This document shows, piece after piece, positions 5,960 through 58,906 of a stretch of 64,000 bases of DNA. The notes beneath the pieces were generated by a model. It worked only from the letters and a program-made list of their open reading frames with translations, was not told the DNA's origin and did no database searches. The position numbers were made by a program, and so were the translations under genes. The DNA is from an uncultured Gammaproteobacteria bacterium (GTDB lineage: Bacteria > Patescibacteriota > Patescibacteriia > UBA9934). Position 1 is the first letter of the stretch. Each line of letters begins with the position of its first letter. The stretch spans positions 291,009-355,008 of the forward strand of contig CAYVLY010000001.1 of assembly GCA_964452565.1 (NCBI GenBank). The letters run 5' to 3'.

Positions 5960-6008
5960 AAGCGCCACCCTCTCGGGGTGGCGTATCGTGCTTTAGTTAA
6001 ACTTATTC

Positions 6009-6031
6009 AGTTGAACTAAAATAGTTCAACT
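6009..6031. repeat. REP-like palindrome AGTTGAACTAAAATAGTTCAACT (copy 1, immediately 3' of RAYT); part of a roughly 45-nt conserved unit tagttaaactt..agttgaactaaaatagttcaact
   Basis: Perfect 9-bp arms AGTTGAACT/AGTTCAACT around AAAAT; same unit repeated at about 6692 and 15896. Confidence 0.8.
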
Positions 6032-6598
6032 GAAATCCAGCGGCACACCAAATCTAATCCAATCTTCTAGAAATCTTTGATATTCTGAATAATCTCTGAA
6101 CTCATCTTCTATAATAGAATTATCTATAATATCGGAATCTCTAAAAACCGACCTAAGACTCGACCATTTATAATCACGCACAAATCTAAGTGCATCTTCG
6201 ACATCTAAACCACCGCCTTTCCAATTATTTGAAATAAATTTTAGAGGATTCAAATGGATATAACGAAACAGATGCAATAAATAGCCATCACGGTCGACTA
6301 ATTTGCGCTTATATCGTGTCTCAAACAAACTACCGGAACGCTGATTTCGCTTATTGAAATATAATGTGTAAGTAGTCCCTATCTTATGCATAAATGTTGC
6401 AATCCCACCTTCAGACGATTCTTCCAACAAAAAATGGAAATGGTTGTCCATGAGGCAAAAAGCATGGAACCTTACTAACTTTTTACCGTCTTCATATGCA
6501 AAACGCCGCATCTGAGAAATAAACCTTTTGCGATCCTGGTCGTCGTCATAGACTGAACGTTTATCAACGCCACGATTATAAATATGATAATAAGACAT
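6026..6598 (-). CDS. REP-associated tyrosine transposase (RAYT), IS200/IS605-like Y1 transposase (TnpA_REP)
   Basis: HUH motif in ...FCLMDNHFHFLLEE... and catalytic Tyr region ...FETRYKRKLV...; flanked on both sides by the same palindromic repeat. Confidence 0.8.
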   Translation of the reverse strand: MSYYHIYNRGVDKRSVYDDDQDRKRFISQMRRFAYEDGKKLVRFHAFCLMDNHFHFLLEESSEGGIATFMHKIGTTYTLYFNKRNQRSGSLFETRYKRKLVDRDGYLLHLFRYIHLNPLKFISNNWKGGGLDVEDALRFVRDYKWSSLRSVFRDSDIIDNSIIEDEFRDYSEYQRFLEDWIRFGVPLDFS

Positions 6599-6691
6599 AA
6601 AACTCCCATTACGGGAGTGTTTATATACTCATCACATCATCTTCAAAAGCCTTAGTCAACCTTAGCTGTATATAACTTGTTAAACTTGGTT

Positions 6692-6714
6692 AGTTGAACT
6701 AAAATAGTTCAACT
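6692..6714. repeat. REP-like palindrome AGTTGAACTAAAATAGTTCAACT (copy 2, immediately 5' of RAYT)
   Basis: Identical palindrome in direct orientation to copy 1; preceded by the same gttaaacttggttagttgaact leader. Confidence 0.8.
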
Positions 6715-6718
6715 AAAA

Positions 6719-14574: not shown

Positions 14575-14673
14575 ATATCAGATACCTCCATCCCGAGCAA
14601 AGTCGAGGGATCTCACGAATCTAGTTTCGAGAGATCTTTCGACTCGCTTTGCTCGCTCAAGATGGAAAAATAT

Positions 14674-15881: not shown

Positions 15882-15930
15882 TTAAGTTAGTTGAACTAAG
15901 TTAGTTGAACCAAAATAGTTCAACTAACTT
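15882..15930. repeat. REP-like element, dimeric copy (gttagttgaactaagttagttgaaccaaaatagttcaactaac)
   Basis: Same AGTTGAAC...AGTTCAACT palindrome family, 9 kb from the RAYT, between two convergent or tandem genes. Confidence 0.7.
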
Positions 15931-20095: not shown

Positions 20096-20238
20096 AGTGG
20101 ATTGATTATATCAAATGTAGGCGGTATGCAGTAGGCGGTATGCAGCAATAAAAAACCCGCCCCAGTTGGGACGAGCGCGCACAAAGAAATGTGCTGTATC
20201 CGCGATGTTTGGACCTACGTCAGTCCAATCGCGACTTG

Positions 20239-20700
20239 TTACCCGTTTTCGGGCGAGCGCCCCGGTGGTGTCCAATTTTTCACCACAATAAGATCCTTGA
20301 TAACCTTTTCCAGGTCATTTACACCATAAACCACAGTATGCCTCTCGTCCTTCTCGAGCTCTGGAGGCATGTCTGGACCGCGAACAATGCAAAGGCGTTC
20401 ATGTGTACAATTCTGCAACGCCTGATGGACCTGAGGGTTAGGAATGCCTTGCGCAATCTCACACCAGGTCAAAACGGCTGGCCAATCACTGACGCTAAGA
20501 ATGATCAGGTCAACCGGGCCATGCCTATACAGGCTATACGTAGCATAGAACAGGTAATTCCCACTTGTTGCAATGATCCATCTAAAGGACCCCTTGTGCT
20601 GCTCTGCGCAACTTGACACTTGCTGAATCTCTTCATGGCTCAGCGGCCCATCGTGCTCGATGAACATCACGTCAACGCCCTTGATCTTACCGCCGCTCAT
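20239..20700 (-). CDS. hypothetical protein, member D of a tandem paralog quartet
   Basis: Shares VRGPDMPxE...V..DL(E/V) block with member C. Confidence 0.5.
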   Translation of the reverse strand: MSGGKIKGVDVMFIEHDGPLSHEEIQQVSSCAEQHKGSFRWIIATSGNYLFYATYSLYRHGPVDLIILSVSDWPAVLTWCEIAQGIPNPQVHQALQNCTHERLCIVRGPDMPPELEKDERHTVVYGVNDLEKVIKDLIVVKNWTPPGRSPENG

Positions 20701-21257
20701 GAATCACCCCCTTGCTGCTGCTGGATCTTGGCGTAGTGTAGTTCAGTAAGGTGATGGACAAGATGATCATAGCCATCGACGATCGTGATGCGCTCTACCG
20801 CTCGAATCTCCTCCTCGGGCATGTCTGGACCACGTACAGCCACCAGCTGTGGGCTTTGTACCTCCCTTTTTCTACTAAGCCCACCGATGTCTGCGTCAGC
20901 CCTTCTGAATTCACGCCAAAAGTAGAAAACATTCTGCCATCTTGACACATCCAAGACAATCACATGAATAGTCCTCTCGGACTCATCAAGGCTACGACCC
21001 CTCTTCCACTTCCATGCCAAAACCTCATATGCGCGAGTAGCGTAACACGGAACGCGGCCGATGGTATATGGCATGAGGCTACCACCAATCTCAGACATGT
21101 GTGCCCCCAATGTCTCCCATTGCTGAACACTGAGCACGCCACCATCGAGAATCAAAAGAACGTTCAGTCCACTCATGGTTTTTCTCCTTTCATTCCACTC
21201 GTGGAGATTTAATGTACTAGCCATGGCCAATTTTGTCAAAAGCAAAGAGCCCTGCAC
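20697..21257 (-). CDS. hypothetical protein, paralog quartet member C (alternative start MASTLNLH at about 21224)
   Basis: N-terminus identical to member B through the 147-bp repeat; ORF-track start is a GTG inside the hairpin. Confidence 0.5.
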   Translation of the reverse strand: MQGSLLLTKLAMASTLNLHEWNERRKTMSGLNVLLILDGGVLSVQQWETLGAHMSEIGGSLMPYTIGRVPCYATRAYEVLAWKWKRGRSLDESERTIHVIVLDVSRWQNVFYFWREFRRADADIGGLSRKREVQSPQLVAVRGPDMPEEEIRAVERITIVDGYDHLVHHLTELHYAKIQQQQGGDS

Positions 21258-21347
21258 CTTATTGGCACAGGACCACGAATAGCATGGGCTATGAGACTAG
21301 CCAAGTTCTGGATCTGTGAGGATCTTGCTGAGTGCAGCCTCGAGCTC
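21201..21347. repeat. 147-bp direct repeat copy 1 (100% identical to 21788..21934). It spans the 3' end of one paralog, the intergenic hairpin and the 5' end of the next.
   Basis: Direct sequence comparison: gtggagatttaatgtactagccatggcc...gcagcctcgagctc is identical in both copies. Confidence 0.85.
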
Positions 21348-21833
21348 CTCAGTCGTATTGACCACAATCGCATCGCCATAGTCACCAGGGGGCGGATTAA
21401 CCAGGATAATTGGCATGGCTTGTACCTCGTCCCTGCCAATATAGCGACTCTGCGCGTTCGCTACAGCTTGGTCTGATTGATACCCCTTCATAAGATGCAT
21501 ACCCCTAGGTCCGAAATCAATCAGAATGGCTATCAGGGAACCACCTCCGCCAAGCTCCTTACGTCCAGCATGGCGGCATATTTCAATTTCTATCATCTCC
21601 CGCAGACATGCCTGTTTTGGGAGCTTGGGCTTCACCCAAAGCTGCACCTCGAGTCGATAGCCCACATCTACCAAATCTTCAGGAGCAAAGTAATAACCTC
21701 TCAGATTCGTTACCTTATCTTCAAGGTAAATCACAACGTATCTTTCCTGCATTTTGAACCCTTCCTTCTCATTACAGTGGAGATTTAATGTACTAGCCAT
21801 GGCCAATTTTGTCAAAAGCAAAGAGCCCTGCAC
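21297..21833 (-). CDS. hypothetical protein, paralog quartet member B
   Basis: N-terminus identical to C; C-terminus ...PPPGDYGDAIVVNTTEELEAALSKILTDPELG nearly identical to member A. Confidence 0.5.
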   Translation of the reverse strand: MQGSLLLTKLAMASTLNLHCNEKEGFKMQERYVVIYLEDKVTNLRGYYFAPEDLVDVGYRLEVQLWVKPKLPKQACLREMIEIEICRHAGRKELGGGGSLIAILIDFGPRGMHLMKGYQSDQAVANAQSRYIGRDEVQAMPIILVNPPPGDYGDAIVVNTTEELEAALSKILTDPELG

Positions 21834-21934
21834 CTTATTGGCACAGGACCACGAATAGCATGGGCTATGAGACTAGCCAAGTTCTGGATCTGTGAGGATC
21901 TTGCTGAGTGCAGCCTCGAGCTCTTCGGGCGTGT
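21788..21934. repeat. 147-bp direct repeat copy 2
   Basis: Identical to 21201..21347. Confidence 0.85.
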
Positions 21935-22385
21935 TGACCACGATTGCCTCGCCATACTCACCCGGCGGCGGGCAGATGAGGACGATCGGAATCGGTGACA
22001 GGATCAAGTCCAATGGCAGTTGCTGGAGCTGCGCTTCGAAAAACCTACCGGCAAGCCTCATGATGTCCTTGGCTTTTGGATAGCGCCTCAGAGACTCGCC
22101 GGCGCAAACCAGATCACCAAAGACCAGCAATGCCTTATAGCCTCGTCCACTCGCCGACCACTCCCAGATCGCATCGAGTGCGATCAACTGGATAGCGATA
22201 CTGACGGGACAAATAAGCCCATGATATGCGGGGCCTGGACAACCTTCAGGTGACCCAACAACCGCGAAGCTCGGCCCGACTGATCGCCTTAGAGAATAAC
22301 TCAGATCCTCAAGGGCCCGATACATCTCATTACGTCTGCTCCAGATCGAATAGTCGCATACAACATAAACGCTGGGAATCGGCAT
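21873..22385 (-). CDS. hypothetical protein, paralog quartet member A
   Basis: C-terminus ...PPPGEYGEAIVVNTPEELEAALSKILTDPELG shared with B. Confidence 0.5.
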   Translation of the reverse strand: MPIPSVYVVCDYSIWSRRNEMYRALEDLSYSLRRSVGPSFAVVGSPEGCPGPAYHGLICPVSIAIQLIALDAIWEWSASGRGYKALLVFGDLVCAGESLRRYPKAKDIMRLAGRFFEAQLQQLPLDLILSPIPIVLICPPPGEYGEAIVVNTPEELEAALSKILTDPELG

Positions 22386-22596
22386 CGAACCTCCTTCATC
22401 ACTTTCTGGTGGTGACTGAGATTAACAGAAGATTCAGATTCTGTCAATAACAAAACACCCCTTTGTCTTTCAAACAAAGAGGTGGTCAACCCTTTTGGTG
22501 ATTGTTTAATCGCTCGGGCTGGGCCCTCGCTTGTCCAAAATGTCTAAAATGTTTATTTCTAAATAAACAACTTGGACACTTTCAACATCTTAAACA

Positions 22597-22950
22597 TCAT
22601 CTATTAACTGCCATTGAATCATCTGGATTTATATATCGCACATCATCTACTTTCACAAGTCCGAGCATTTGCACACGTGTCATCACACTATCGATTGAAC
22701 GAAGGGATGAGACCTGTTGCTGCAATTGTTCGTTCTCGTGTTCAAGATCGGCAATCTCATGTTCCATATCCCGCACAGCATAGCCTTGAGTAGCTGACAT
22801 GTTTACTTGCCAGATATAGAGCGCTCCGACAACTGCCACACAGGCTAGTAAACAATATCCGAACCACTTTGTGGATGTAAAATTGAGAGTCATGGTTGTA
22901 ATAGACGGGATCGTCATAGTCCTCCGAGTCGGCTTCCCCAGTCGGCGCAT
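22597..22950 (-). CDS. FtsL-like cell-division protein (single TM plus coiled coil), downstream of rsmH
   Basis: Position in the mraZ-rsmH-ftsL order; TM helix WFGYCLLACVAVVGALYIW; heptad-like EHEIADLEHENEQLQQQV. Confidence 0.55.
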   Translation of the reverse strand: MRRLGKPTRRTMTIPSITTMTLNFTSTKWFGYCLLACVAVVGALYIWQVNMSATQGYAVRDMEHEIADLEHENEQLQQQVSSLRSIDSVMTRVQMLGLVKVDDVRYINPDDSMAVNR

Positions 22951-30990: not shown

Positions 30991-31092
30991 CAAAAAACCG
31001 GTTAACATCTCCATCTCGAGCGACCGAAGGGAGTCGAGAGATCCCTCGGCTACGCTCGGGATGGAAAGGCTTGACCGGCTTTTTTTAATTTC

Positions 31093-33144
31093 CTAGAAAT
31101 TATCCTCAAGCGAACTTACCGAATCATACACATCATCAACATCATAGTCGCCTGCATCGTCAATATCGCTACCAAACGAATAGTTTGAGAAGAACGCATC
31201 AGAAATATCATCGATCTGTTGATTCCAATCGGATCCATACAGATCTTCAGCAATATCCTCCGAGGCAATCGCGCGCAATACTCCGCCCTGCTCTACAGCA
31301 TAAACCGTGTTAACAGTTTGGAACTTAACCATCTTAACTCCCGGTCGATAGGTCACGTTTGATCCAAGTGGCGCATCAGCCATTACAGTTGAATCTATAA
31401 TCACAATATCATCAAAACTTTCAAACCAGGTGAAATAAACTTTTGAGTTTGGAAATGCATGACGCTCACCACTGCTGTCATAGTAATACACGGCACGGCA
31501 TGGATCATTCACATCTGTTGAATCAATACATTGTGATTTGATTAATACCTCTGTATCCAGATCAGCAATATCAGTTATCACGCCTGATGGGTCATCACTG
31601 TAAGTAGTTTCGTCTGGTTCAGTGGGCTCAGTAGATTCGGACGCGACACCAACAGTAATCGAACTTGTTGATCCAGTTGTCGAATTGCCAACTTCATCCT
31701 CACAGACTACATATGCGGAATATGTTCCATCTGAACCAAATGTGTAGCCACTTGAGAATGTACCATCACCTAAATCAGACATTGCGCTATGCAATGTGCC
31801 ATTCAGATATAGGTAGCAGAGATCAATACTTGTCAATGCATCTGTAGCAGTAACAGTCAATGTAGTTGCTACTCCCTCTGTAGCTGATATTGGACTAACT
31901 GTCGAAACAGTCGGCCCTGTTTGATCAGAAACAACGGTCACCGAAGATGCCTCGCTAGAATTTCCAACAAGATCAACCGCCTTAACGCTCACCTCATGAG
32001 ACCCCTCTGTAACTGATAGTACATAACTTTCACTCGATCCAACATCTACATATCCATCTCCATCTTGGTCAACCTCATAATGATCAATTCCGGTATCATC
32101 TGTTGCCGCATCCCATGTTAGTTGGATTGATGAAGTTGCCGTGGGGGAGTTTGATGACAGATTACTTACCGCAGACGGCCCCTCTTCATCTTGTAAGTAT
32201 AAAAAGCCAACTCCCTCTGAGTTGAATCCGACTATCTTCAAAGGATCACTAGGAGAGATTTCAACGTCATAGATAAAGTACATAAGGCTCTCATCTGGCA
32301 GATCAACACTTGTCCAAGTAGCTCCCTGATCATCAGTCGTATAAACAGCACTTAAACCAACAGCTGCACCAAAATAGATTGAGTAGAAATCAAACGTACT
32401 TAGATTAGCTGACTCCAGACCACTAACATCTGACCAGTTTACTCCACTATTAGTCGTATAAAGGAGTCCATCGTCAGATGCGATGAATCCTCTGGCAGTA
32501 TTTATAAAATATACATCTGAAAAATCATCAGTGCCGCCAGGACTCTCATCAACCCAGGTCGAGCCACCATCGATAGTCATAATAAATGTTCCATTATCTC
32601 CAACAGCGTACCCGTAATTTGAGCTCAAGAAATAAGCACCATTAAGATCCTCTGTAACACCTGAGCCCTGCGGGGTCCATGAATCTCCACCATCACCAGT
32701 TACATATATGACTCCCGATTCTCCAACTATCCATCCATTATCTGAATCGTACATCTCTATTCTTCTAAAATCATAACTGCCAAGAATGGACGCTTTGCTC
32801 CATGAATCTCCAAAGTCATCTGTTTTATAAACTGCACCATTCTCACCAATAACAATCACTGTGTTCTCATCAATTATCTTAATGTCCCAAAGAACATCGG
32901 TTGTTGGAGCATGTTCAGTGGTGCTTTCCCAGCCGTCCTGTGTTAATAGCACATTTGAAAAAGCCATGGCTGGATCATCTACCACGACTGCACCAATATC
33001 ACTACTGTAGTGATCTAAGCCTATAACATAGCCATCTGATGACTCATATAAACCAGCCCAATCTGCTGCATGGGCGCTTGATACACCTACGGCGCAGAAT
33101 AATAGTGCTACAAACAGCACTGAAAAATACTTAAGTAATCTCAT
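31093..33144 (-). CDS. large secreted BNR/Asp-box repeat protein with a conserved roughly 170-aa C-terminal domain shared with 42459..44873
   Basis: Signal peptide MRLLKYFSVLFVALLFCAVGVSSAHA; repeated S/DxDxGxxW boxes (DFGDSWS, DGGDSWT, DGGSTWV, NSGVNWS, DQGATWT); Ser/Thr-rich linker; the C-terminal domain aligns with its paralog. Confidence 0.7.
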   Translation of the reverse strand: MRLLKYFSVLFVALLFCAVGVSSAHAADWAGLYESSDGYVIGLDHYSSDIGAVVVDDPAMAFSNVLLTQDGWESTTEHAPTTDVLWDIKIIDENTVIVIGENGAVYKTDDFGDSWSKASILGSYDFRRIEMYDSDNGWIVGESGVIYVTGDGGDSWTPQGSGVTEDLNGAYFLSSNYGYAVGDNGTFIMTIDGGSTWVDESPGGTDDFSDVYFINTARGFIASDDGLLYTTNSGVNWSDVSGLESANLSTFDFYSIYFGAAVGLSAVYTTDDQGATWTSVDLPDESLMYFIYDVEISPSDPLKIVGFNSEGVGFLYLQDEEGPSAVSNLSSNSPTATSSIQLTWDAATDDTGIDHYEVDQDGDGYVDVGSSESYVLSVTEGSHEVSVKAVDLVGNSSEASSVTVVSDQTGPTVSTVSPISATEGVATTLTVTATDALTSIDLCYLYLNGTLHSAMSDLGDGTFSSGYTFGSDGTYSAYVVCEDEVGNSTTGSTSSITVGVASESTEPTEPDETTYSDDPSGVITDIADLDTEVLIKSQCIDSTDVNDPCRAVYYYDSSGERHAFPNSKVYFTWFESFDDIVIIDSTVMADAPLGSNVTYRPGVKMVKFQTVNTVYAVEQGGVLRAIASEDIAEDLYGSDWNQQIDDISDAFFSNYSFGSDIDDAGDYDVDDVYDSVSSLEDNF

Positions 33145-33330: not shown

Positions 33331-33404
33331 TCTACTTCATGGTTCCCGGACAGGGATTCGAACCCCGATTTCCTGGACCAAAACCAGGCGTCCTGCCATT
33401 AGAC
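33331..33404 (-). tRNA. tRNA-Gln (anticodon TTG) with encoded CCA
   Basis: Manual fold: 7-bp acceptor tcccgga/tccggga, U8, D-stem gtct/ggac with a GG loop, anticodon stem cctgg/ccagg around loop ttTTGgt, 4-nt variable loop, T-arm cgggg-TTCGAAT-ccctg, discriminator A then CCA. Confidence 0.8.
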
Positions 33405-33518
33405 GATCCGGGAGTGTAGCGAGTGGACTGAAAATCTACTTGTATATTTTTCAGTCCCGAGCGCAACGATACGGATACCAAAGTATCCGGGAGTGATCGC
33501 GCGAGGATAATACCGAAT

Positions 33519-49770: not shown

Positions 49771-50262
49771 ATGTGAATGAGTTAGTCCCGTGGGGTTTAA
49801 AAAACCACGGCCTTAACGCCGTGAAACAATGAGATCTGATCAAAAGTTCGATCAAATAGCCTCGATAGGACTTACGCTCTTGCAAGCAACCTATTGTCTT
49901 TAGCATTAAGTTGTCAGAAGTATAGAATATTGGCCAAATTATGTCAAGAAGCAGAACGCTCGCCCTTTCGGACGAGCAGTACGTGTACGTGTGGCGCTGA
50001 GGCTACTCAGAGCAGTACTAGCTTTTGATGCCAAACAGCTCAGTGATGATGCCGACAGCCTCTACCTTGGCCCGTTCCAGGTCCCCATGCAGTGTATACT
50101 GCTCCCAGAAAAGCCGCATCAACAAGCAACGCAAGCACATATTTTCATGACCACAAGCCATGTCTCTTTCCTTTCCCTGTGACAAGTAACACTAGAGGTG
50201 GCAATTAAAATAGCACCTATCCCCTTTCTTGTCAATTATCTGAGGTCTAAGTGCTTATCAAT

Positions 50263-50390
50263 CCGACCAAAGGCTTCGACTTTCCTCTTGTCATCCCTGG
50301 CTACGACCAGGGATCCATCGATTATCGAACTCTATAGTTGATGGATTCCCGCTTTTGCGGGAATGACAATAGATCAAAAACTTTGGTCAG
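50263..50390. repeat. Island hairpin repeat, long form (the structured element at 50289..50368 is inserted in the repeat loop)
   Basis: atccgaccaaaggcttcgactttc[ctcttgtcatcc...gaatgaca]atagatcaaaaactttggtcag. Confidence 0.7.
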
Positions 50391-50467
50391 AGCGGCGCGT
50401 TTTCCTTGCGCCGCACGTGACTATTCTCGCGCGGGAGGGAGAATAGTGTCGCTAGGCCTCTTGGGGC

Positions 50468-51652
50468 CTAGAAGAAGACTGTTGGTCCAACCATCTCATC
50501 GTGCGCGATCATATGGTAGTCAACGCCATCATCGGAAACCATGATCGAGTCTTCCGGAACCGTGACAGTCACTCGATCATCACCACTCGCAGCAGTCGCT
50601 CCAGTGCCGTCCACCGAGAACGTGACTCCGAGGATATCTTCGGCATCTACATTGATCGGCGCGTACGAAACGCCATCAAAGCTTGCGGTATGCGTACAGA
50701 TCGTTAGGATGCAAGTATCGCCGGGATAGCACGGGCCATAGCCATCCTCCATACATGCACCGCTTTCTACCGCTGCCTCACCAAGCAAGGCGCCGGAGTC
50801 GGTGTCGTACATGTACACAGAGCTCAGCCCTGCACACCATCCAGTGTCATCGTAGCTCCAGCAATCGACAAACACGGATGTGGGACTGATCTGGAGGTCA
50901 GAGCATTCATGCAGAGTGCTGAAGTTCGTATTGAGCGCATCGACGATTCCGGGAGTGGTTGAGGTATCGATCGTATACACATCGTCGACGACCAGCTCAT
51001 TGCTCATCTCGACCTCGGTCCCATCAGCCAATTCGACATCCCACCGGCAGGTGTTGTCCACATAGTTCATGAAGTCCGGGCTTTCACCGCCGTTGTTGGC
51101 CAGGATCACGACTCTGTCTGCAGTTGAGACGATATCGGATGGATCCAGGATGTCGAATGCGAATCCGACTTCGACACGGATGAACTCTGTGACGTCCTCA
51201 GAGATGTCGCACACCAGGTTGAGTGCTGTGGCGCGACGTCCAACGTTGAACCCACTATCAAGCAACAGGTGCTCATCAAGGATTATCTCAGTTGGCGGCT
51301 CGACAGTGCTGCCAGTCATGGCGTTGGACAGACGACAGCGCTGAACATACTGACTCAGATCAGTGAAGCCACGGTCGACTCCATCCATGCCGTAGTCGAT
51401 CAGTGCCGTTGGGCTCACGCTGAACACGTGGATGGGCCTTGGGTCTCCTGACCCAACCTCTGCTCCACGTTCTTCAACCTGCCGCAAGGTCAATGTACCG
51501 AAGTACACATTCTCCTGACCGGGCTGCACCTCTACCAATCCAGACCCCGGGCCCTCGAACTTGACCTTGAGGATCGAAGCATGCGAGCTGTGTGGCAAGA
51601 GATAGCCCATGAGGGCAACGATGAGAACAAACAGAATATTTGCGAAACGCAT
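50468..51652 (-). CDS. secreted Cys-rich hypothetical protein (island cassette)
   Basis: Signal peptide MRFANILFVLIVALMGYLLPHSSHA; 394 aa with diverse composition. Confidence 0.55.
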   Translation of the reverse strand: MRFANILFVLIVALMGYLLPHSSHASILKVKFEGPGSGLVEVQPGQENVYFGTLTLRQVEERGAEVGSGDPRPIHVFSVSPTALIDYGMDGVDRGFTDLSQYVQRCRLSNAMTGSTVEPPTEIILDEHLLLDSGFNVGRRATALNLVCDISEDVTEFIRVEVGFAFDILDPSDIVSTADRVVILANNGGESPDFMNYVDNTCRWDVELADGTEVEMSNELVVDDVYTIDTSTTPGIVDALNTNFSTLHECSDLQISPTSVFVDCWSYDDTGWCAGLSSVYMYDTDSGALLGEAAVESGACMEDGYGPCYPGDTCILTICTHTASFDGVSYAPINVDAEDILGVTFSVDGTGATAASGDDRVTVTVPEDSIMVSDDGVDYHMIAHDEMVGPTVFF

Positions 51653-52014
51653 AGCGTTTCCTTCCGGCCTTAGCGGCCTTGCATAGTACGGAATGCACTA
51701 CATCGGACGCGATGTCCGATCAAAGAGTTCGATGATAGTTGAAATGTCTAATCGTTCGGCCAAAGGCCTCACTTGTTGAAATTGTTGACGTTGCTTATCG
51801 CACCGTAAACATCTTCAACAACTTAAACAGTTTAAACATTCCTATCAAACACTTAAATCAGACCCCCTGCACTGGAGAGAGACCGGTGCAGGGATTCTGT
51901 AGTACTAGATAATTAGTACGTCCAAAAGACTCGAAATTATTCAAATACTTTGGATGAACCCCCTGCCGACGAAATTCGGCAGGGGCCAGGACTTGGGTTT
52001 CACGGATTTGGAAT

Positions 52015-52054
52015 CCGACCGAAGGGTTCAAGTTTGCTTAAACACTTTGGTCGG
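52015..52054. repeat. Island hairpin repeat CCGACCGAAGGGTTCAAGTTTGCTTAAACACTTTGGTCGG
   Basis: 10-bp stem CCGACCGAAG/CTTTGGTCGG (one G-U pair if RNA); loop carries the T-loop-like GGTTCRA. Confidence 0.75.
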
Positions 52055-52101
52055 ACGATGCGCTCAGATGAACGCACCGTAGAACGGTGTGAGTAGTCGG
52101 C

Positions 52102-52293
52102 CTAGCCGTCTGCGAACACCAGGCACCTGTCCTTGGTGGCGTCGGGGTTGAGGTGCTTCCGCAGCGCGGGATCGAAGGCCACATTCTCGCAACCTTCCGG
52201 GATCTCGTACTCGCCCAGGCTGACACCGGTGCACCCCGTCGCGGAGAAGCATGCGATGAAGGCCAGGGCCAGGCTGATGATGGTCTTACGCAT
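52102..52293 (-). CDS. small lipoprotein, 4 Cys (island cassette)
   Basis: MRKTIISLALAFIACFSATGC lipobox. Confidence 0.5.
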   Translation of the reverse strand: MRKTIISLALAFIACFSATGCTGVSLGEYEIPEGCENVAFDPALRKHLNPDATKDRCLVFADG

Positions 52294-52349
52294 GATGAAC
52301 TCCGTGGAGGCGCGGCAAAGCCGCTAGGGTTGAAGGTATCACTCTCGAA

Positions 52350-52389
52350 CCGACCGAAGGGTTCGAATTACTTCAAACACTTTGGTTGA
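52350..52389. repeat. Island hairpin repeat (ccgaccgaagggttcgaattacttcaaacactttggttg)
   Basis: Same family. Confidence 0.75.
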
Positions 52390-52454
52390 CCCCCTGCCGC
52401 GTATGTTGGCAGGGGCGCTCACGCGAGTCGCGTGGCGTCGTAGTAGTTGTGGGC

Positions 52455-52886
52455 CTACCAGCCCTGGAGCTGCTTGATCGTGAGAGCGGTTTCCTGTGCG
52501 CACACCAGATGAGGGTGCGTGATGAACGAAGCGGTACTCTGGTCCATGATCCTCATGAGCGCCGCCAGCAGATCGCACGGCCTGCCACCGAAGTGCAGAC
52601 CCACAGGACTCACGGCAGCCAGGAACATGCCCAGCAGCCACACCTCGCCGTCAGCGGTGCTGGCACTGTAGGTGATGGTCCAGGAACGTGGATCGTCCAG
52701 GTGTCTCACCACCCGGAGGCGTGATTCACCGGAACCTAGGTACGTCCTCCGGTCACTGGATCCTGACCAGGTGTCCCGCCCCATCAGCTCGCTGAGCCTG
52801 GCGATGTCTTTGGACAACACCACCGTGCTTATCTCGATCTGGCGGGCAAGGAATCCCCCGAAGAGCCTCTCAAAGATACCGAACAT
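52455..52886 (-). CDS. hypothetical cytoplasmic protein (island cassette); start at MFGIFERLFGG
   Basis: ORF between two repeat copies; ORF-track start 52931. Confidence 0.45.
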   Translation of the reverse strand: MFGIFERLFGGFLARQIEISTVVLSKDIARLSELMGRDTWSGSSDRRTYLGSGESRLRVVRHLDDPRSWTITYSASTADGEVWLLGMFLAAVSPVGLHFGGRPCDLLAALMRIMDQSTASFITHPHLVCAQETALTIKQLQGW

Positions 52887-52942
52887 GGCATCTCCTCTCA
52901 CCTGGCTCTGGGGCCAGGGCTCTGGTTTCACGGATTTGGAAT

Positions 52943-52982
52943 CCGACCGAAGGGTTCGATATTCATCAAACGCTTTGGTCGG
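52943..52982. repeat. Island hairpin repeat (ccgaccgaagggttcgatattcatcaaacgctttggtcgg)
   Basis: Same family. Confidence 0.75.
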
Positions 52983-53197
52983 TCCCGCCCAGACATTATG
53001 CGGGAGACGAAGAAAAGGGACTACAGGCCAAGCAATCTACAGATACACTCGACGATGACCAACCCAACCAGTATACCAAGGCCCAGGCAAACCAGATCTC
53101 TGTAGAAATTGGTACGGGTGCGACTATCAAACAAAGATACCTACTTCCACCTGGCGTCAACCAGGAGTTATGGGGTTTCAAGAATGGACACAGCGGC

Positions 53198-53374
53198 CTA
53201 CTTGGGCTTCCATTCTCCAGGACAGACACCCTGACGCTCGTACAAGGTGATTGCAGTGCTGCAGTACTCCGCCAACTCCTCCTTATTCATCATGATCGGA
53301 GGCTTGGGAAGGTACCACAACGCAAACACCGCCAGCGCCAACAGCGCACATCCAGCCAGCAGTTCTCTCGACAT
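53198..53374 (-). CDS. small secreted protein of about 58 aa (island cassette; below the ORF-track size cutoff)
   Basis: Manual translation MSRELLAGCALLALAVFALWYLPKPPIMMNKEELAEYCSTAITLYERQGVCPGEWKPK. Confidence 0.4.
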   Translation of the reverse strand: MSRELLAGCALLALAVFALWYLPKPPIMMNKEELAEYCSTAITLYERQGVCPGEWKPK

Positions 53375-53448
53375 TCCAACTCTCTTTCACCTAGTAAAAA
53401 CCGGGGTCAGAGGTGAGGGTTCGGATTTGCGATCCTATTTGACGCATA

Positions 53449-53488
53449 CCGACCAAAGGCTTCGAATTGTTTCAAAAACTTTGGTCAG
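53449..53488. repeat. Island hairpin repeat (ccgaccaaaggcttcgaattgtttcaaaaactttggtcag), followed by a shared roughly 45-nt module gtaggtgaggcttgtcgtcaattcgacactacctc
   Basis: Same family; the extra module is also present after the 54067 copy. Confidence 0.7.
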
Positions 53489-53541
53489 ACCCCCCGCCCA
53501 GACATTATGCGGGGGACGTAAGACGTAGGTGAGGCTTGTCG

Positions 53542-54012
53542 TCAATTCGACACTACCTCGAGGGTGGGATCTTCGGATTCGTGTTCTTCTCCATGGCGTG
53601 GCATGATCGCCATACCCAGGAGAATCCACGCGATCCACGGGAAGAGCCACTCGAACGGCCAGAGCACCCAATCCGCCAGGAACTGACGAAAAGGAGTCCG
53701 ACTCGGACAGCCCTGAGTGAACCACTCGATGGCGAAGAACCGAGGTTCCGTATCCCGATTCATCTTGCCCTGATAGTGAGAATCAGCCCATCCGCATTGC
53801 CACCACACACCACCACGATCACGTTCTAGGCGGCAGCTGGCGTAGCGGTCGTAACCAAGCATGAGCGAGGTTATGGTAGCTGCGTTCTTCTCGCCATCAC
53901 CATCGATGTCGAGGATAGTCCTATCCACACAGCCAACTGCACACGACCCAAGGGACAATCCAAGGGCGATGAAGAAAGCTACATTGAAGATGATTCCTCT
54001 GAGTCGCTCCAT
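53542..54012 (-). CDS. lipoprotein with a C-terminal TM helix (island cassette); start at MERLRG
   Basis: MERLRGIIFNVAFFIALGLSLGSC lipobox; Trp-rich C-terminal helix. Confidence 0.5.
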   Translation of the reverse strand: MERLRGIIFNVAFFIALGLSLGSCAVGCVDRTILDIDGDGEKNAATITSLMLGYDRYASCRLERDRGGVWWQCGWADSHYQGKMNRDTEPRFFAIEWFTQGCPSRTPFRQFLADWVLWPFEWLFPWIAWILLGMAIMPRHGEEHESEDPTLEVVSN

Positions 54013-54066
54013 AGCAACTCCTTCCACCAGATTTCTCTGGGTTGAAGATTGGAGTTCGGATTGGAT

Positions 54067-54107
54067 CCGACCGGAGACTTTGAAATACTTTCAAAATCTT
54101 TGGTCAG
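54067..54107. repeat. Island hairpin repeat (ccgaccggagactttgaaatactttcaaaatctttggtcag)
   Basis: Same family, diverged loop. Confidence 0.7.
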
Positions 54108-54175
54108 ACCCCCCACCCGAAAACAATGTGGGGGTCAAAGACGTGGGTGAGGCTTGTCGTCAATTCGACACTACC

Positions 54176-54643
54176 TCAGGGGCTGGTGCTGGTCCTGCAC
54201 TGCATCGAATAGACGATGAAGGTGAACAGCGCTGATACCAAGACGCAGACCTGGCAGGTCCTGCCCAGGAAAGTCTCAAACGGCATCGTGCTTGGAACGT
54301 AGATCACGAGGCCAGGGTAGATGGCTACCACCAAGCACGTGAAGATGCCAAGTGCCATCACAGTAGTGTACATGGCGCAGAACATACACATCACGTTGCT
54401 GGTGAAGGACTTGCGTACGCCATCCACGAACAGCAAGCCTGTTCCGAGAAGGCAAAGCACGACGCCAACAAGGAACGATACGAAGTACACGAGATACATC
54501 GGTATATCTTCCACCTGGCTGTAGCCAGGAGTTAAGGGTTCAAGCTCGGATTCATGATCCGACCAAGAACCTCGAGAGAGTTCAAGATTCTTGGTCGGCG
54601 GCGGCCTGTCGAGAGTATCGACTTCCGCCTTGTACGTACTCAT
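54176..54643 (-). CDS. 4-TM membrane protein (island cassette)
   Basis: Four hydrophobic helices; Cys-rich. Confidence 0.5.
   Translation of the reverse strand: MSTYKAEVDTLDRPPPTKNLELSRGSWSDHESELEPLTPGYSQVEDIPMYLVYFVSFLVGVVLCLLGTGLLFVDGVRKSFTSNVMCMFCAMYTTVMALGIFTCLVVAIYPGLVIYVPSTMPFETFLGRTCQVCVLVSALFTFIVYSMQCRTSTSP
54559..54598. repeat. Island hairpin repeat, diverged copy lying inside the 5' end of the 54176..54643 ORF (ccgaccaagaacctcgagagagttcaagattcttggtcgg)
   Basis: Same stem; loop variant. Confidence 0.5.
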
Positions 54644-54649
54644 ACGTAG

Positions 54650-54757
54650 TCAACAGCCCTGCAGGAAAAGCAAGGGGAAAATCATGGCGACTATCACCAC
54701 GCCCATCATAATCAGTGCCCAGCTCACCTCATCCATTCCACTTTTTTGGGAGTCCAT
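54650..54757 (-). CDS. putative 35-aa membrane peptide (island)
   Basis: Manual translation MDSQKSGMDEVSWALIMMGVVIVAMIFPLLFLQGC. Confidence 0.25.
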   Translation of the reverse strand: MDSQKSGMDEVSWALIMMGVVIVAMIFPLLFLQGC

Positions 54758-54828
54758 AGGACTCCTTTCCCCGGCTTATTGCCGGATGCGTCTCTAGGAC
54801 GCCTTCTGAATTGACTCTTTTACTATAA

Positions 54829-54869
54829 CCAACCGAAGGGTTCGATTATTCATCAAACACTTTGGTCGG
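54829..54869. repeat. Island hairpin repeat (ccaaccgaagggttcgattattcatcaaacactttggtcgg)
   Basis: Same family. Confidence 0.75.
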
Positions 54870-54915
54870 ACGATGCACCCGGGTGGTGCATCGTACGGGA
54901 CGAGGGGGTTGTTGG

Positions 54916-55362
54916 CTACCAGTGCATGAAGTCGTGGATGCTCTGGGCCCCTGTGCGAACGTGTGTGAACAGCTGCAGGAGATCGCCATTCTCACAGCGC
55001 ATCCAGCCCGAGATCAAGCTCCTGAGCCTGGACATACGCTGACTAGACATATTCGTGGGCTTGGTGTCTCCCAGGGCGTTGAGCAGCACGGGCAGCACGG
55101 GCGCTTCATATACAGTCGGCTGGCCCCACAGGAAGTACTCTAGCTTCCAGGTGCCATCGGGCTGCTGCTTGGCCTCGAGGAACTCGAATCCCTGCGGCCA
55201 CGCGAACCTGAGCGCCTCCTGGCCGTCTTCCTGCTCAGACTCGATGGTCATGCGGCGCTTGGCGCTCTCATGGGCTCGGGCCATGGCCTCAGCCGAGACG
55301 GTCGCCTCCACTTGAACTGACCGACTCTTCCGCTTCGCGCTTGGACGAGTAATCACACTCAT
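54916..55362 (-). CDS. hypothetical protein (island cassette)
   Basis: ORF between repeat copies. Confidence 0.45.
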   Translation of the reverse strand: MSVITRPSAKRKSRSVQVEATVSAEAMARAHESAKRRMTIESEQEDGQEALRFAWPQGFEFLEAKQQPDGTWKLEYFLWGQPTVYEAPVLPVLLNALGDTKPTNMSSQRMSRLRSLISGWMRCENGDLLQLFTHVRTGAQSIHDFMHW

Positions 55363-55413
55363 CTCCTCTCACCTGGCTCTGGGGCCAGGACTCTGGTTGA
55401 ACGGATTTAGAAT

Positions 55414-55537
55414 CCGACCGAAGGGTTCAACTTTCTCTTGTCATCCCAGCCGTAGAGCCGGGATCCATCGTTTATCGAACTCGATAGTTGATGGATTCCT
55501 GCCTACGCAGGAATGACATATTAAACACTTTGGTCGG
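55414..55537. repeat. Island hairpin repeat, long form (the structured element at 55439..55518 is inserted at the same loop position as in 50263..50390)
   Basis: ccgaccgaagggttcaactttct[cttgtcatccc...ggaatgaca]tattaaacactttggtcgg. Confidence 0.75.
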
Positions 55538-55582
55538 ACGATGCACCCGGGTGGTGCATCGTACGGGAACGGGGAGTTGGGG

Positions 55583-55906
55583 CTACCGCTGGGCCTTGGC
55601 GTGGGCCTTGCGGTCGGCGCCCTGGCGCGGCTGCTGGCCGGACTTGCCGGGCTGGCGATCGGGGCTCTGGGCCTTGCGACCCTTGGGCTGGTTGCCCTGC
55701 CTCGGCGCCTGTGCCCTGGTCTTCGGCTCGGGCTTCTGCACCTCAACCTCCACCTCGACCCGGTCCGTGATGGACTCGGGCTCGGTGAGCTGGTCGACGA
55801 TGCCGTAGACCACGAGGCCGGTGATCGAGGTGATGCCGAGGCCGATGGCCAGCAGGATGCCAGCCACGATGGCTATGGCAGATGCGGTTCTCTGGTTCCT
55901 GGTCAT
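55583..55906 (-). CDS. small membrane-anchored protein with a basic Gln/Pro/Lys-rich tail (island cassette)
   Basis: TM helix AIAIVAGILLAIGLGITSITGLVVYGIV. Confidence 0.45.
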   Translation of the reverse strand: MTRNQRTASAIAIVAGILLAIGLGITSITGLVVYGIVDQLTEPESITDRVEVEVEVQKPEPKTRAQAPRQGNQPKGRKAQSPDRQPGKSGQQPRQGADRKAHAKAQR

Positions 55907-56043
55907 TTGAGTTCCTTTCTCTTGACCGGGTTGTACTCGCTCGAGAATCTCGATACTGGATCAAGAGTCTTGAGCGAGCGGCACATTCGATGCACCACAC
56001 GGAAGTTGGTTGTGAAGAAGGGACGGAGGAGGTTGATGTGGGG

Positions 56044-56823
56044 CTAGTCGATGAAGAACAAACGCTGACCCGGGGTGGGCAGGCCATCCACGGTGAGGCC
56101 ATCGAGGAGCTGGCCCTCTGCGGTCTCCCAGTGGAACTCGGCCGGCCAGCTGATGCTGGTGACCGTGTCGTCCTGGCAGTCCTCGGAGGTACAGGGGCTC
56201 GGAGCCGCCTCATAGGCCATGCGGAACCACTTGGTCTCACCGGCCACGAGCTCCACATCGATCTCGGCAACTGCCTGCTCGACGTCCAGGTTGGGACCGT
56301 AGCTGCAGTCCACCCACTCGGCCTCATCGTCGTCGATGGTGTAGAAGTCCCAGTTGGCTTCCAGCGTCATCCACTGGTCGTAGCCGTCCTGGTCCTCACC
56401 CATGTACTCGTAGAAGCCGAAGTAGAGGGAATCGCCCTGGTTGGAGCAGGAGTTCCAGTCCGTGTAGCCATAGTCCGTGGTGCCCATGCGGAACGGCACC
56501 TGGGTGAGGTAGGCATCCACGTTGGCAGTGAGGCTGAACTCGATGACCGGGACCCTGTGGCCCAGTGCGAAGTACTCGCCCTCGACCTCGATGTAGTCGA
56601 GCTCGATGCGAGGCGAGACCTCCTCTTCTTCGACACCCTCTGTCTCCTGGCTCTCCTCTTCACTGCTGCCGATGTCGTCGACGTCCTCGTCGTACTCGTA
56701 GACGTTGGCATCGTTGTCCTCGATCTGTTCTTCCTGGCTCTCGACTTCCGGGCACTCGCAGGGAGCGCCGCAGGCGATGGAGAGGAACAGGGGGGCGAGG
56801 ACGGAGGGGGTGGAAAAACGCAT
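56044..56823 (-). CDS. acidic lipoprotein (island cassette); start at MRFSTPSV
   Basis: MRFSTPSVLAPLFLSIACGAPC lipobox; long Glu/Asp-rich linker; aromatic-rich C-terminal domain. Confidence 0.5.
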   Translation of the reverse strand: MRFSTPSVLAPLFLSIACGAPCECPEVESQEEQIEDNDANVYEYDEDVDDIGSSEEESQETEGVEEEEVSPRIELDYIEVEGEYFALGHRVPVIEFSLTANVDAYLTQVPFRMGTTDYGYTDWNSCSNQGDSLYFGFYEYMGEDQDGYDQWMTLEANWDFYTIDDDEAEWVDCSYGPNLDVEQAVAEIDVELVAGETKWFRMAYEAAPSPCTSEDCQDDTVTSISWPAEFHWETAEGQLLDGLTVDGLPTPGQRLFFID

Positions 56824-56887
56824 TACGCGCTCCTTCTTGCTTGGGAAATGCGGATGAGCCGCTTGGGAAAGGTAGTTTCTATCGTAT

Positions 56888-56927
56888 CCGACCGAAGGGT
56901 TCAAGTTTACTTAAACGCTTTGGTCGG
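56888..56927. repeat. Island hairpin repeat (ccgaccgaagggttcaagtttacttaaacgctttggtcgg)
   Basis: Same family. Confidence 0.75.
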
Positions 56928-56972
56928 GCGGCACATCAGAGACGTACCGCGTAGACGAAGGGGGTTGAAGGT

Positions 56973-57131
56973 TCACTGTACCCTCTCGAACCGGGTGGTC
57001 GAGTGGGTGATGTCGTTCACGACTGCATCGATCGCTGCACTTGCCCTGCTCACGCCCTTGAGGGCGCAGATCAGAAGCACCGCGATGAATGCAAGACGGA
57101 AAAATGGAACTTCGACGATATTTTCGAACAT
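56973..57131 (-). CDS. putative 52-aa membrane peptide (island)
   Basis: Manual translation MFENIVEVPFFRLAFIAVLLICALKGVSRASAAIDAVVNDITHSTTRFERVQ. Confidence 0.3.
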   Translation of the reverse strand: MFENIVEVPFFRLAFIAVLLICALKGVSRASAAIDAVVNDITHSTTRFERVQ

Positions 57132-57265
57132 GGGACTCTCCGGTTGGTGGGTTGTTCTCTTCCCAGACCTTTACAAAGTTCTTGAACTAATGTTCCAGGT
57201 CTTTGCTAAGGTGCGGCGCGTCGATCAGATCAACGCGCCGCAACGAGGATGAAGGGACGGTATCG

Positions 57266-57727
57266 CTACAGCCCCATCTCCTTCAGCTCCCGCTGGTACT
57301 CGCGGCACTGGCGACGCTGGGCCTTCTTCTCGAAGTCGCGACAGCTGAGCTGCGCGAGCTCCGTAGTCCAGGCGCTGAGCTCCTCCTCGAGGGTGGGTTC
57401 GGGCTGGGCCAGGGTCTCGGGGCCGATGCTGTCGGTGCGGTACACGCCGACGGCCTCGATCTCCTTGGCCAGCTGCGCATCCTTCCAGGCCTGCCAGGCC
57501 TGGATCTCGGCGGCCGTGGGGCCCTCCTCCTTCTGCACCTCGACCTCGACGGTCTCGGCGGGCAGGAAGTCGGAGAGGGTGGCCAGCGGGGCTTCGACCA
57601 GCTCGGGCGCTGCCTCGGCCTTGCCACCGTGCACCAGGTGCATGACACCCAGACCGGCGGTGAAGCCGATGGTGAGCAGGACGAGCAGGGCGGCGAGCAG
57701 GGCGGCGGCGATGGCGATATACTTCAT
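57266..57727 (-). CDS. secreted hypothetical protein (first island cassette at the right border)
   Basis: Signal peptide MKYIAIAAALLAALLVLLTIGFTAG; alternative overlapping minus-frame ORFs are Arg/Pro-rich GC artefacts. Confidence 0.5.
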   Translation of the reverse strand: MKYIAIAAALLAALLVLLTIGFTAGLGVMHLVHGGKAEAAPELVEAPLATLSDFLPAETVEVEVQKEEGPTAAEIQAWQAWKDAQLAKEIEAVGVYRTDSIGPETLAQPEPTLEEELSAWTTELAQLSCRDFEKKAQRRQCREYQRELKEMGL

Positions 57728-57961
57728 GATGTACTCCAGGATTCTCGAATTGGGGTTGGGGACTTGGTAGACGAGATCTGAACACTTTTTATATTCAGGT
57801 CTCGTCTACCAAATGTAGCTTGTTAAAGAAAACCGGCTATCTTTCTTGATTTAAGAGAGATAACCGGTTTTCCACCACAGATCACCATATAACAGGATCA
57901 CTGTGATAATGCTTCTTAACCCAGAAGCTGGGGCTCTCTCTGATTGTGAAGTTCCTTGATC

Positions 57962-58050
57962 TTTACATGTAGTACTATAGCACAAAATCGACCTTTTGTC
58001 AAGGCCTAAGGCCGGATTTTAGGCTAATTTTAGTCTATTTTAAAAGGCTG
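57962..58050. repeat. AT-rich conserved motif actatagcacaaaatcgaccttttgtcaagg... at the right edge of the GC-rich island (paralogous copy at 63822..63900)
   Basis: About 27/31 identical core with the copy at the window end, plus shared ttttagGCTAattttag blocks. Confidence 0.55.
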
Positions 58051-58799: not shown

Positions 58800-58810
58800 A
58801 TTCACTTTCT

Positions 58811-58893
58811 TATCATCCCGGCCATAGAGCCGGGATCCATCGTCATACCAAATTCGATAGTTGATGGACCCCCGATTGGGGTCGGGGTGACAG
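58811..58893. repeat. Structured multi-hairpin element, TGTCATCC...GAATGACA family, copy C, immediately upstream of pyrH
   Basis: tatcatcccggccatagagccgggatccatcg...cgatagttgatgga...ggggtgaca. Confidence 0.65.
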
Positions 58894-58906
58894 AGCAACG
58901 AGCCAA

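Follow-up and report, generated by a model that had tools for sequence, protein, structure and literature searches.

What does a short conserved hairpin do when it is repeated between otherwise unrelated genes? The question is raised by a 64,000-nucleotide (nt) stretch of GenBank assembly GCA_964452565.1 (contig CAYVLY010000001.1, positions 291,009 to 355,008 of the forward strand; hereafter the window), in which a block of co-oriented orphan genes is punctuated by copies of a 40-nt palindrome that we denote element B. The copy from which the analysis started lies at 52015-52054. Homologues of ribosomal protein L10 identify the host as a member of Candidatus Uhrbacteria, within the candidate phyla radiation (CPR), whose bacteria have tiny genomes and in which gene gain and expression are little known. 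Here, a fixed locus beside a ribosomal-protein operon carries fast-turnover orphan genes for secreted or membrane proteins in a conserved non-coding scaffold. An initial annotation of the DNA had proposed that the palindrome is an RNA processing or stability element, a recombination hairpin or a protein-binding site. The first two remain the leading readings, and we tentatively prefer the former: B may serve as a hairpin between cistrons in the processing or stability of the mRNA, and at the same time offer homology on which cassettes are shuffled, functions that we infer from its fold and placement. The class to which B belongs is that of hairpin-punctuated cassette arrays or intercistronic hairpins; the literature yielded no description of B or of the array, and nothing relevant on integrons or cassette arrays in Patescibacteria or Uhrbacteria.

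Element B is a recurrent repeat of one island

Within 7.7 kb of the window, B occurs 13 times in a single orientation; three copies are degenerate and three carry large inserts in the loop (Table 1). All ten copies listed in the initial annotation were recovered, in one orientation and following the island genes as described. Its list was incomplete, with two further degenerate copies (51918-51957 and 57166-57209), and the degenerate repeat that it placed near 51745 is present but represents the interior of a long-form copy, 51716-51861, with a loop insert of ~100 nt. The stem reported as common to all copies is indeed conserved, but it is exact in only three of them, the others differing by 1-3 bases. 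Those three matches to the pattern CCGACCGAAG-N-CTTTGGTCGG compare with 0.00 expected. When at most one mismatch is allowed, the two half-sites are observed 19 and 23 times versus 3.2 and 5.5 expected, an excess confined to 50.26-56.93 kb, and a repeat search aligned 9-11 copies in the same orientation. A covariance model (R1) built from the B copies returned them with 44-68 bits (E 1e-16 to 1e-9; 52-68 bits for regular copies) and detected no further B in the window, nor any in the searched flanks of other loci. The repeat is real and far beyond chance.

One segment of the island, 51862-52014, consists of two spacer units without an open reading frame (ORF). In it, a remnant of a 5' untranslated region (UTR) module of type A is fused to a GC-rich hairpin of the kind denoted hairpin A below via a common GCCCC, and a degenerate B comes next; the arrangement looks like a gene deletion by microhomology.

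The stem is maintained by compensatory changes

B had been described as a 10-base-pair (bp) stem closing a loop of ~20 nt with the motif GGGTTCGAwT. Most of that supposed loop is in fact paired, and the element folds into an irregular 17-bp hairpin with a loop of 4-6 nt. Above its base, CCGACC/GGTCGG, an outer stem of 10 bp is separated by a U/C mismatch from 3 further bp, and these are followed by a U-G wobble and 3 covarying bp before the loop. The arms are equal in length and are interrupted by the one symmetric mismatch and the one wobble, with no bulged bases. The wobble is retained in 14 of 16 copies, and the three innermost pairs covary freely (AAG/CUU, GAA/UUC, GAU/AUC, AAA/UUU).

Pairing and covariation were tested on these 16 aligned copies, drawn from three lineages, against 500 shuffles. 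In the alignment, 94.1% of cells are paired and both sides have changed in 10 of the 17 pairs; none of the shuffles matched this combination (0/500), and sliding the register reduced the paired cells to 18-61%. The copy at 54559-54598 is illustrative, with two compensated outer-stem pairs, one changed from A-U to G-C and the other from G-C to A-U. The earlier proposal of a conserved stem with a variable loop therefore holds in that the hairpin is under selection for pairing, as the covariation supports, but it is incorrect in its particulars: the bases of the motif belong to the inner stem.

These results also dispose of a likeness to tRNA. On the plus strand, some copies read GGTTCGAAT, which had suggested a T-loop or B-box. 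The GGTTCGA motif is, however, the plus-strand (non-coding) reading of the inner stem, whereas the genes lie on the minus strand; it is thus paired, variable and antisense. ARAGORN finds a single tRNA in the window, at 33340-33413 (33.3 kb), and none in the island, and Rfam, at gathering thresholds and at E<=5, returns only the L10 leader and noise, with nothing in the island. Nor is B a classical intrinsic terminator, as had been correctly noted: no U-tract (T-run in the DNA) follows either B or hairpin A, and neither is called as a terminator on the sense strand. Both identities, tRNA-like element and terminator, are refuted.

Insertions at the hairpin tip leave the stem intact

Loop inserts of 87-105 nt are accommodated with the stem left intact and have been retained in four lineages. 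The 87-nt insert is predicted to fold as a cloverleaf, a closing stem with three hairpins, in which five compensatory pairs occur among only four copies; it has no Rfam match, and a solo copy lies at 58808-58895, just upstream of the pyrH-like gene that bounds the island. The second insert, AT-rich and ~100 nt long, is found in the B loop of 51716-51861 (insert 51739-51840) and in that of another locus, L027 (689-790), with 85% identity over 67 nt, as well as solo at 22496-22605, after a gene stop. Because the inserts also occur alone, both are small independent repeat elements tolerated at the tip of B. The notion that inserts are drawn to the B loop as a hotspot, with DNA extrusion as its implication, was considered and dropped: the long forms trace to two ancestral insertion events, and neither solo copy resides in a hairpin loop.

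Tolerance of this kind is expected of a hairpin and not of a double-stranded DNA site, and it makes the protein-binding site of the initial annotation unlikely. An operator or silencer bound as duplex, or a promoter before each gene, would account for the palindrome, the conserved outer half-sites and a position 50-100 nt upstream of each start codon. However, the central inserts alter half-site spacing and yet have been kept, both half-sites change together such that pairing persists, and there are no sigma-70-like hexamers in or beside B. Dependence on the spacing of duplex half-sites, as for an operator, a promoter or a dif-like core site, is therefore excluded by the loop insertions, and a sigma-70 promoter identity by the promoter scan. 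We accordingly give a duplex operator or promoter function very little credence.

The same locus carries different arrays in related genomes

B is also present outside the contig. None of the outcomes that the initial annotation had named as refuting was therefore obtained: covariation is there, B is not an insertion-sequence end, and it is not limited to this contig. A pattern scan of metagenomes revealed three contigs with B. One of these, L028, comes from a related organism and is syntenic, with the order rplL, rplJ, leader, island, promoter and pyrH-like gene; its four B copies separate small high-GC genes that are entirely different from those of the window. Further arrays were fetched as rplJ loci through L10 homologues. 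L035, L036 and L037 (80% L10 identity) have five B copies; L045 (90%) has one long-form B and a degenerate terminal copy; and the overlapping contigs L027 and L029 together represent a single array, whose five spacer units include two long forms. B thus separates different orphan genes at the pyrH-like-rplJ locus in three other metagenomic lineages, and in all loci the array lies between these two genes. No cassette of the window has a homologue in any other array compared. L035 has five B copies for six ORFs, with none after the last gene, and B is therefore strictly between genes. The copies resemble each other more within an array than between arrays: those of L035 have CTGACC...CCTTTTGGTCGG in common, with the loop region AAAGAAATTT, and those of the window CCGACC...CCCTTCGGTCGG.

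In more distant Uhrbacteria (L039, L047, L049, L050, L031 and L032), the interval from the kinase gene to rplJ likewise holds orphan genes that vary and are often high in GC, but no B. Hotspot behaviour is therefore general at this locus, whereas B is the mark of one subclade. L031 and L032 (1-9710) have an identical rplJ and an identical 437/438-amino-acid (aa) protein, probably a transposase, flanked by TGACATTTCTATTTTGCC repeats; their gene content further upstream is completely different, so the hotspot upstream of rplJ exists also in lineages without B.

Two comparisons bear on how these arrays change. L028, with four units, and L035, with five, differ by an unequal homologous crossover that took place within paralogous ORFs and away from the hairpin; this is the sole structural polymorphism resolved. 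A cassette gene common to L045 and L027 (~80% DNA and 65% protein identity in the ORF) has a 3'UTR, including hairpin A, that is identical across 54 aligned columns. Upstream of the gene, by contrast, the two arrays have unrelated 5'UTRs, unrelated inserts in the loop of the B before it, and different neighbours.

B as a possible element of the transcript

Each spacer has the same order in the direction of the genes: hairpin A, 0-2 nt, B, a 5'UTR of 50-100 nt and the next start codon. Hairpin A is GC-rich, variable in sequence and directly precedes B, so that B always stands between a GC hairpin lacking a U-tract and the 5'UTR of the next gene, and always in gene orientation. In most 5'UTRs, a small hairpin immediately precedes a strong ribosome-binding site, with weak support (z-scores +0.3 to -2.7).

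The array is headed by a strong promoter-like site that is conserved in L035, where it runs directly into the array, and rplJ has its own at the downstream end of the locus (Table 1). The promoter scan predicted no sigma-70-like promoter between array genes on the sense strand; the lone match in the array, 51156-51129, falls within the ORF for a 394-aa protein. Pairing is also better on the gene-sense strand. There are 33 G-U (G-T) cells on this strand versus 13 on the opposite strand, and the summed folding energies are -474 (sense) versus -443 kcal/mol (antisense) for B and -303 versus -272 kcal/mol for hairpin A. The L035 copies show the bias clearly; in those of the window it is mixed.

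We rank an RNA function first because of this sense-strand bias, the strict placement between genes and the absence of predicted inter-gene promoters; the layout of 3' hairpin, B, and 5' hairpin with ribosome-binding site also favours it. According to this model, the array would be transcribed from the minus strand of the window as a multi-gene transcript in which B folds into its irregular hairpin. This would serve as a recognition or cleavage site for a double-strand-specific ribonuclease (RNase III-like) or as the site of an RNA-binding protein; cleavage at B would divide the transcript into mRNAs of one gene each, with hairpin A closing the 3' end and the small hairpin before the ribosome-binding site standing at the 5' end. 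As a side effect, the conserved spacers would provide homology for unequal crossing-over and gene conversion, letting gene units reshuffle, duplicate and be deleted. Homologous recombination on the spacers, for which the crossover between L028 and L035 is the evidence, would explain the duplication, loss and exchange of cassettes without a dedicated recombinase.

With 17 pairs and one mismatch between genes, B has the irregular stem of about two helical turns that characterises RNase III-type sites. Intercistronic RNase III processing hairpins occur in the early mRNA of phage T7, and repetitive extragenic palindromic (REP)-type hairpins stabilise 3' ends in operons. As with B, these are irregular, conserved structures that separate the genes of a single transcript and lack U-tracts, and stable hairpins remain at the ends of the released messages. 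B differs in that its stem sequence is far stricter than RNase III needs and in that its array is hypervariable, with genes of foreign composition. If B is an RNA processing signal, it would constitute a new cis-acting RNA family that organises accessory gene expression.

Several observations weigh against an RNA role. On the sense strand, one outer-stem pair is an A/C mismatch in 8 of 16 copies, including six of the eight regular window copies, and reads as G-T on the other strand. In the window, the head promoter is followed after ~110 nt by a canonical terminator (57828-57872) before the first gene. The outer stem is near-invariant across lineages at 80-90% L10 identity, more than RNase III-type recognition needs, and the presence of a spacer on every newly gained gene is not explained by a function in RNA. 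The layout is also like that of integrons, in its promoter, co-oriented orphan cassettes, hairpins, strain turnover and ORF composition unlike that of the host. Finally, what the sequences themselves show is the covarying hairpin, its better pairing on the sense strand, its strict placement between genes, its tolerance of large loop inserts, the hypervariable locus and one homologous crossover; that transcription runs through the array, that B is cleaved or bound and that hairpin A stabilises the message are steps that we infer.

Between that terminator and the first array gene lies a 19-bp near-perfect hairpin (57764-57812); the segment 57764-57998 could encode a small RNA or be one more inserted element.

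Comparison with integron cassettes

The resemblance to integrons gives weight to a second reading, less probable than an RNA element but to be taken seriously, in which B is a single-stranded-DNA recombination site of an integron-like cassette platform. The folded hairpin would be recognised by a recombinase whose gene lies elsewhere, of either the tyrosine or the HUH/Y1 type, and ORF-plus-hairpin cassettes would be excised and inserted at the fixed locus between the pyrH-like gene and rplJ, downstream of the resident promoter. Many features of attC arrays are shared. A head promoter precedes about 14 co-oriented, mostly orphan genes with no predicted promoters between them, and an imperfect palindrome follows each, as in the CALIN definition (a palindrome after each co-oriented cassette ORF, at least two clustered). 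The repeats are homogeneous within an array, ORF-less units occur, and array content is entirely different at the same locus in related genomes, the orphan ORFs having foreign GC content at third codon positions (GC3) and turning over completely. The stem is conserved beyond the need of a structure-only RNase site, and the spacer accompanies every gene. The terminal part of the hairpin is variable and sometimes branched, like that of attC (PMC5027507), and unpaired and wobble features are conserved. In addition, the cassette gene common to L045 and L027 has different upstream neighbours, and many assemblies break at the array edge.

In its details, B departs from attC. These sites have a conserved AAC in the R box (R'' RYYYAAC / R' GTTRRRY), extrahelical bases and an unpaired central spacer, together with a variable terminal structure, and their bottom strand folds better and has more G:T pairs (PMC5027507). 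B has no AAC/GTT core: the regular expression RYYYAAC-N30-130-GTTRRRY gave one match per strand in the island, at the same place inside the 394-aa ORF. It also lacks extrahelical bases and a central spacer, is shorter (40 nt) than typical attC, and has the reverse strand bias, with the sense strand folding better. Of the defining features of attC, it has only the variable terminal structure and the array layout. Moreover, its framework includes a separate GC hairpin and conserved 5'UTR modules, and its host is a CPR bacterium.

Nor is an integrase found beside any array. None of the 40 ORFs scanned with Pfam in the window, which is 64 kb of a 709-kb genome, encodes a tyrosine recombinase (Phage_integrase); ten of these ORFs were the island's own. 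This was a scan that left out, outside the island, ORFs of <140 aa, six of >500 aa (for example, 9146-10720 and 31093-33144) and those at 44-64 kb; no such gene adjoins the array in L035, L036, L037 or L039. The genome does encode a hairpin-acting enzyme, an IS200/RAYT-like Y1 transposase (RAYT, REP-associated tyrosine transposase) at 6026-6598, and this can be counted in favour of recombination, but the gene is flanked by a different hairpin. The dynamics of the array also fit poorly: homology between units ends at start and stop codons and not at B, the only rearrangement to be resolved was a homologous crossover within an ORF, and the last gene of L035 has no B after it.

The broader proposition, that B represents an integron-like cassette platform in CPR bacteria that is integrase-independent or uses a new recombinase, appears somewhat less probable still. 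On this view, a fixed chromosomal site upstream of rplJ would capture, express and reshuffle foreign orphan genes by means of a hairpin unrelated to attC in sequence, and the conserved UTR framework would be part of the capture unit. Should B prove to be a site of recombination, the integron problem would have been solved a second time and independently, and this in the Patescibacteria, a lineage unmentioned in the IntegronFinder 2.0 survey (PMC9024848).

The Y1 gene (minus strand, region 5995-6718) matches Pfam Y1_Tnp at 5e-10 and the NCBIfam model for REP-associated tyrosine transposases at 45 bits, where the cutoff is 80. Identical copies of the hairpin AGTTGAACTATTTTAGTTCAACT stand on either side of the gene (6009-6031 and 6692-6714), and a solo third copy lies 9 kb away (15903-15925). 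The protein belongs to an enzyme class that acts on DNA hairpins, and its own hairpin is not element B.

Comparison with dispersed repeats

B might instead have no dedicated function, as a palindrome resembling REP sequences or miniature inverted-repeat transposable elements (MITEs) that is spread by tandem duplication of units and homogenised by gene conversion; whatever it did, such as offering homology for recombination or weakly stabilising RNA, would then be incidental. The greater similarity of copies within arrays than between them, the documented unequal crossover and the other small palindromic repeat families of the same genome are all in line with such an origin. There is likewise a resemblance to REP sequences and bacterial interspersed mosaic elements (BIMEs) with their RAYTs: these repeats, like B, are imperfect palindromes of 20-40 nt that lie between genes, at the 3' end of a gene, and a RAYT/IS200-like Y1 gene is in the window. 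However, REP and MITE families are dispersed, whereas B is confined to the array, in one orientation and one between-gene position. Compensatory changes keep its diverged stems paired, and it is conserved across 80-90% L10 identity while the ORFs turn over completely. B has no GTAG head and no copy elsewhere in the window or in the searched flanks of other loci, and the Y1 gene is flanked by another hairpin, which sets it apart from a REP/RAYT system (REPtron, BIME). It is also not the terminal repeat of an insertion sequence (IS), a possibility raised initially: we see no terminal inverted repeats with target-site duplication, the Pfam scan found no transposase in the island, and BLASTN of the whole island gave no match in 72,556 plasmids or 50,697 phages. 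A selfish or neutral repeat fits the covariation and the restriction to one locus poorly, and we consider it improbable.

Modular spacers around foreign genes

The features of the island and its spacers are compiled in Table 1.

Table 1. Positions of element B, associated spacer modules and transcription signals in the window
Feature	Position	Strand	Evidence and remarks
High-GC island	50200-57760	-	~14 co-oriented orphan genes, hairpin A + hairpin B spacer between each
Promoter-like site, array head	57974-58002	-	TTGACA-17-TATAGT, extended TG; conserved in L035
rplJ promoter-like site, downstream locus end	49919-49947	-	TTGACA-17-TATACT; conserved in L035, L045 and other loci
Long-form B	50263-50390	-	Normal arms + 87-nt cloverleaf insert (50282-50370) at loop tip; repeat family D8
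Degenerate long-form B	51716-51861	-	AT-rich ~100-nt hairpin insert in loop
Degenerate B, spacer unit without its ORF	51918-51957	-	Covariance model 53.7 bits; sequence
B, starting copy	52015-52054	-	Exact match; covariance model 66.1 bits
B	52350-52389	-	Covariance model 61.1 bits
B	52943-52982	-	Exact match; covariance model 68.3 bits
B	53449-53488	-	Covariance model 60.3 bits
B, 41 nt	54067-54107	-	Covariance model 54.5 bits
B	54559-54598	-	Covariance model 51.9 bits; pair table
B, 41 nt	54829-54869	-	Covariance model 59.6 bits
Long-form B	55414-55537	-	Cloverleaf insert 55432-55520; repeat family D8
B	56888-56927	-	Exact match; covariance model 64.5 bits
Diverged B, between first two genes of array	57166-57209	-	Covariance model 44.4 bits
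Hairpin A, abuts B	52055-52082	-	3' end of gene 52102-52293; fold
Hairpin A (GCCCCTGCC...GGCAGGGGG)	52391-52417	-	Fold
Hairpin A, type as 53490-53516	52983-53007	-	Repeat family D15, 96% identity; fold
Hairpin A	53490-53516	-	Repeat family D15; fold
Hairpin A	54109-54134	-	Fold
Hairpin A, type ACGATGCACC...GGTGCATCGT	54870-54894	-	Repeat family D7; fold
Hairpin A, same module as 54870-54894	55538-55562	-	Repeat family D7; fold
Hairpin A	56928-56952	-	Fold
5'UTR module type A, B to start codon	52889-52942	-	Small hairpin + GAGAGGAG ribosome-binding site; repeat family D5
5'UTR module type A, second copy	55360-55413	-	Repeat family D5
3'UTR module overlapping stop codon	53520-53562	-	97.5% identical to 54138-54177
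3'UTR module, second copy	54138-54177	-	97.5% identical to 53520-53562

Several spacers share modules other than B. The initial annotation had noted a 40-45-nt module common to two copies and overlapping a stop codon, and this was borne out: the two 3'UTR modules of Table 1 touch the stop codons of genes 53542-54012 and 54176-54499, both on the minus strand. Another 3'UTR module, represented by the D7 hairpins, is 92% identical over 60 nt up to the stop codon in two units with unrelated upstream ORFs. The two 54-nt 5'UTR modules of type A are 92.6% identical up to the ribosome-binding site, and the proteins that follow are unrelated (E=0.32). The non-coding framework is thus modular and conserved far better than the ORFs. 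Neither an RNA element nor a recombination site accounts for unit homology that ends at start and stop codons.

In one spacer, a second type of intercistronic hairpin (CTCGCTCAAGACTCTTGAT...ATCGAGATTCTCGAGCGAG in gene direction, 55934-55979) stands in place of B, between genes 56044-56823 and 55583-55906. The L029 array has a spacer (1277-1325) with ~80% identity to this hairpin.

The island is flanked by rplL-rplJ with the L10 leader (a weak Rfam match) on one side and by the pyrH-like kinase gene on the other. Every plausible gene within it is on the minus strand, and its composition differs from that of the host, with a GC content of 0.52-0.61 versus ~0.43 in the flanks and genome, and GC3 of 0.61-0.93 in its ORFs versus 0.38-0.45 in flanking host genes. 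Searches with ten island proteins gave nothing meaningful in Pfam, PHROGs or PADLOC. A 148-aa protein retrieved only itself among 5.8 billion clusters, and a homologue search with the 394-aa protein yielded only four relatives, all distant. Judged from their sequences, many island proteins are small and have signal peptides or transmembrane segments.

Other repeats in the window and in the searched genomes

Two scans of viral contigs did not find B. Matches to the arm pattern in genome contigs were rejected as chance singletons or as an unrelated Planctomycetota palindromic repeat that shares the selected arms only. The latter is a nested repeat of ~100 nt (TTGTGGCCGGTCTCTGACCGAGCC...CCGACCGAAGGTCTCC...GGAGACCTTTGGTCGG...) seen in Planctomycetota metagenome-assembled genomes (L004, L005, L007, L013, L016-L018 and L021), on several contigs of one such genome as well as in other Planctomycetota.

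Elsewhere in the window, a second block of raised GC content (~50%; 20200-22400) contains four orphan genes on the minus strand and no element B; two of these genes end alike, in C-terminal coding sequence, 3'UTR hairpin and a downstream promoter-like TTGACA. Another palindromic repeat family (CTCCATC...CGAGCRAAG..TCGAGRGATC...GATGGAAA) occupies intergenic positions at 14590-14670 and 31005-31070.

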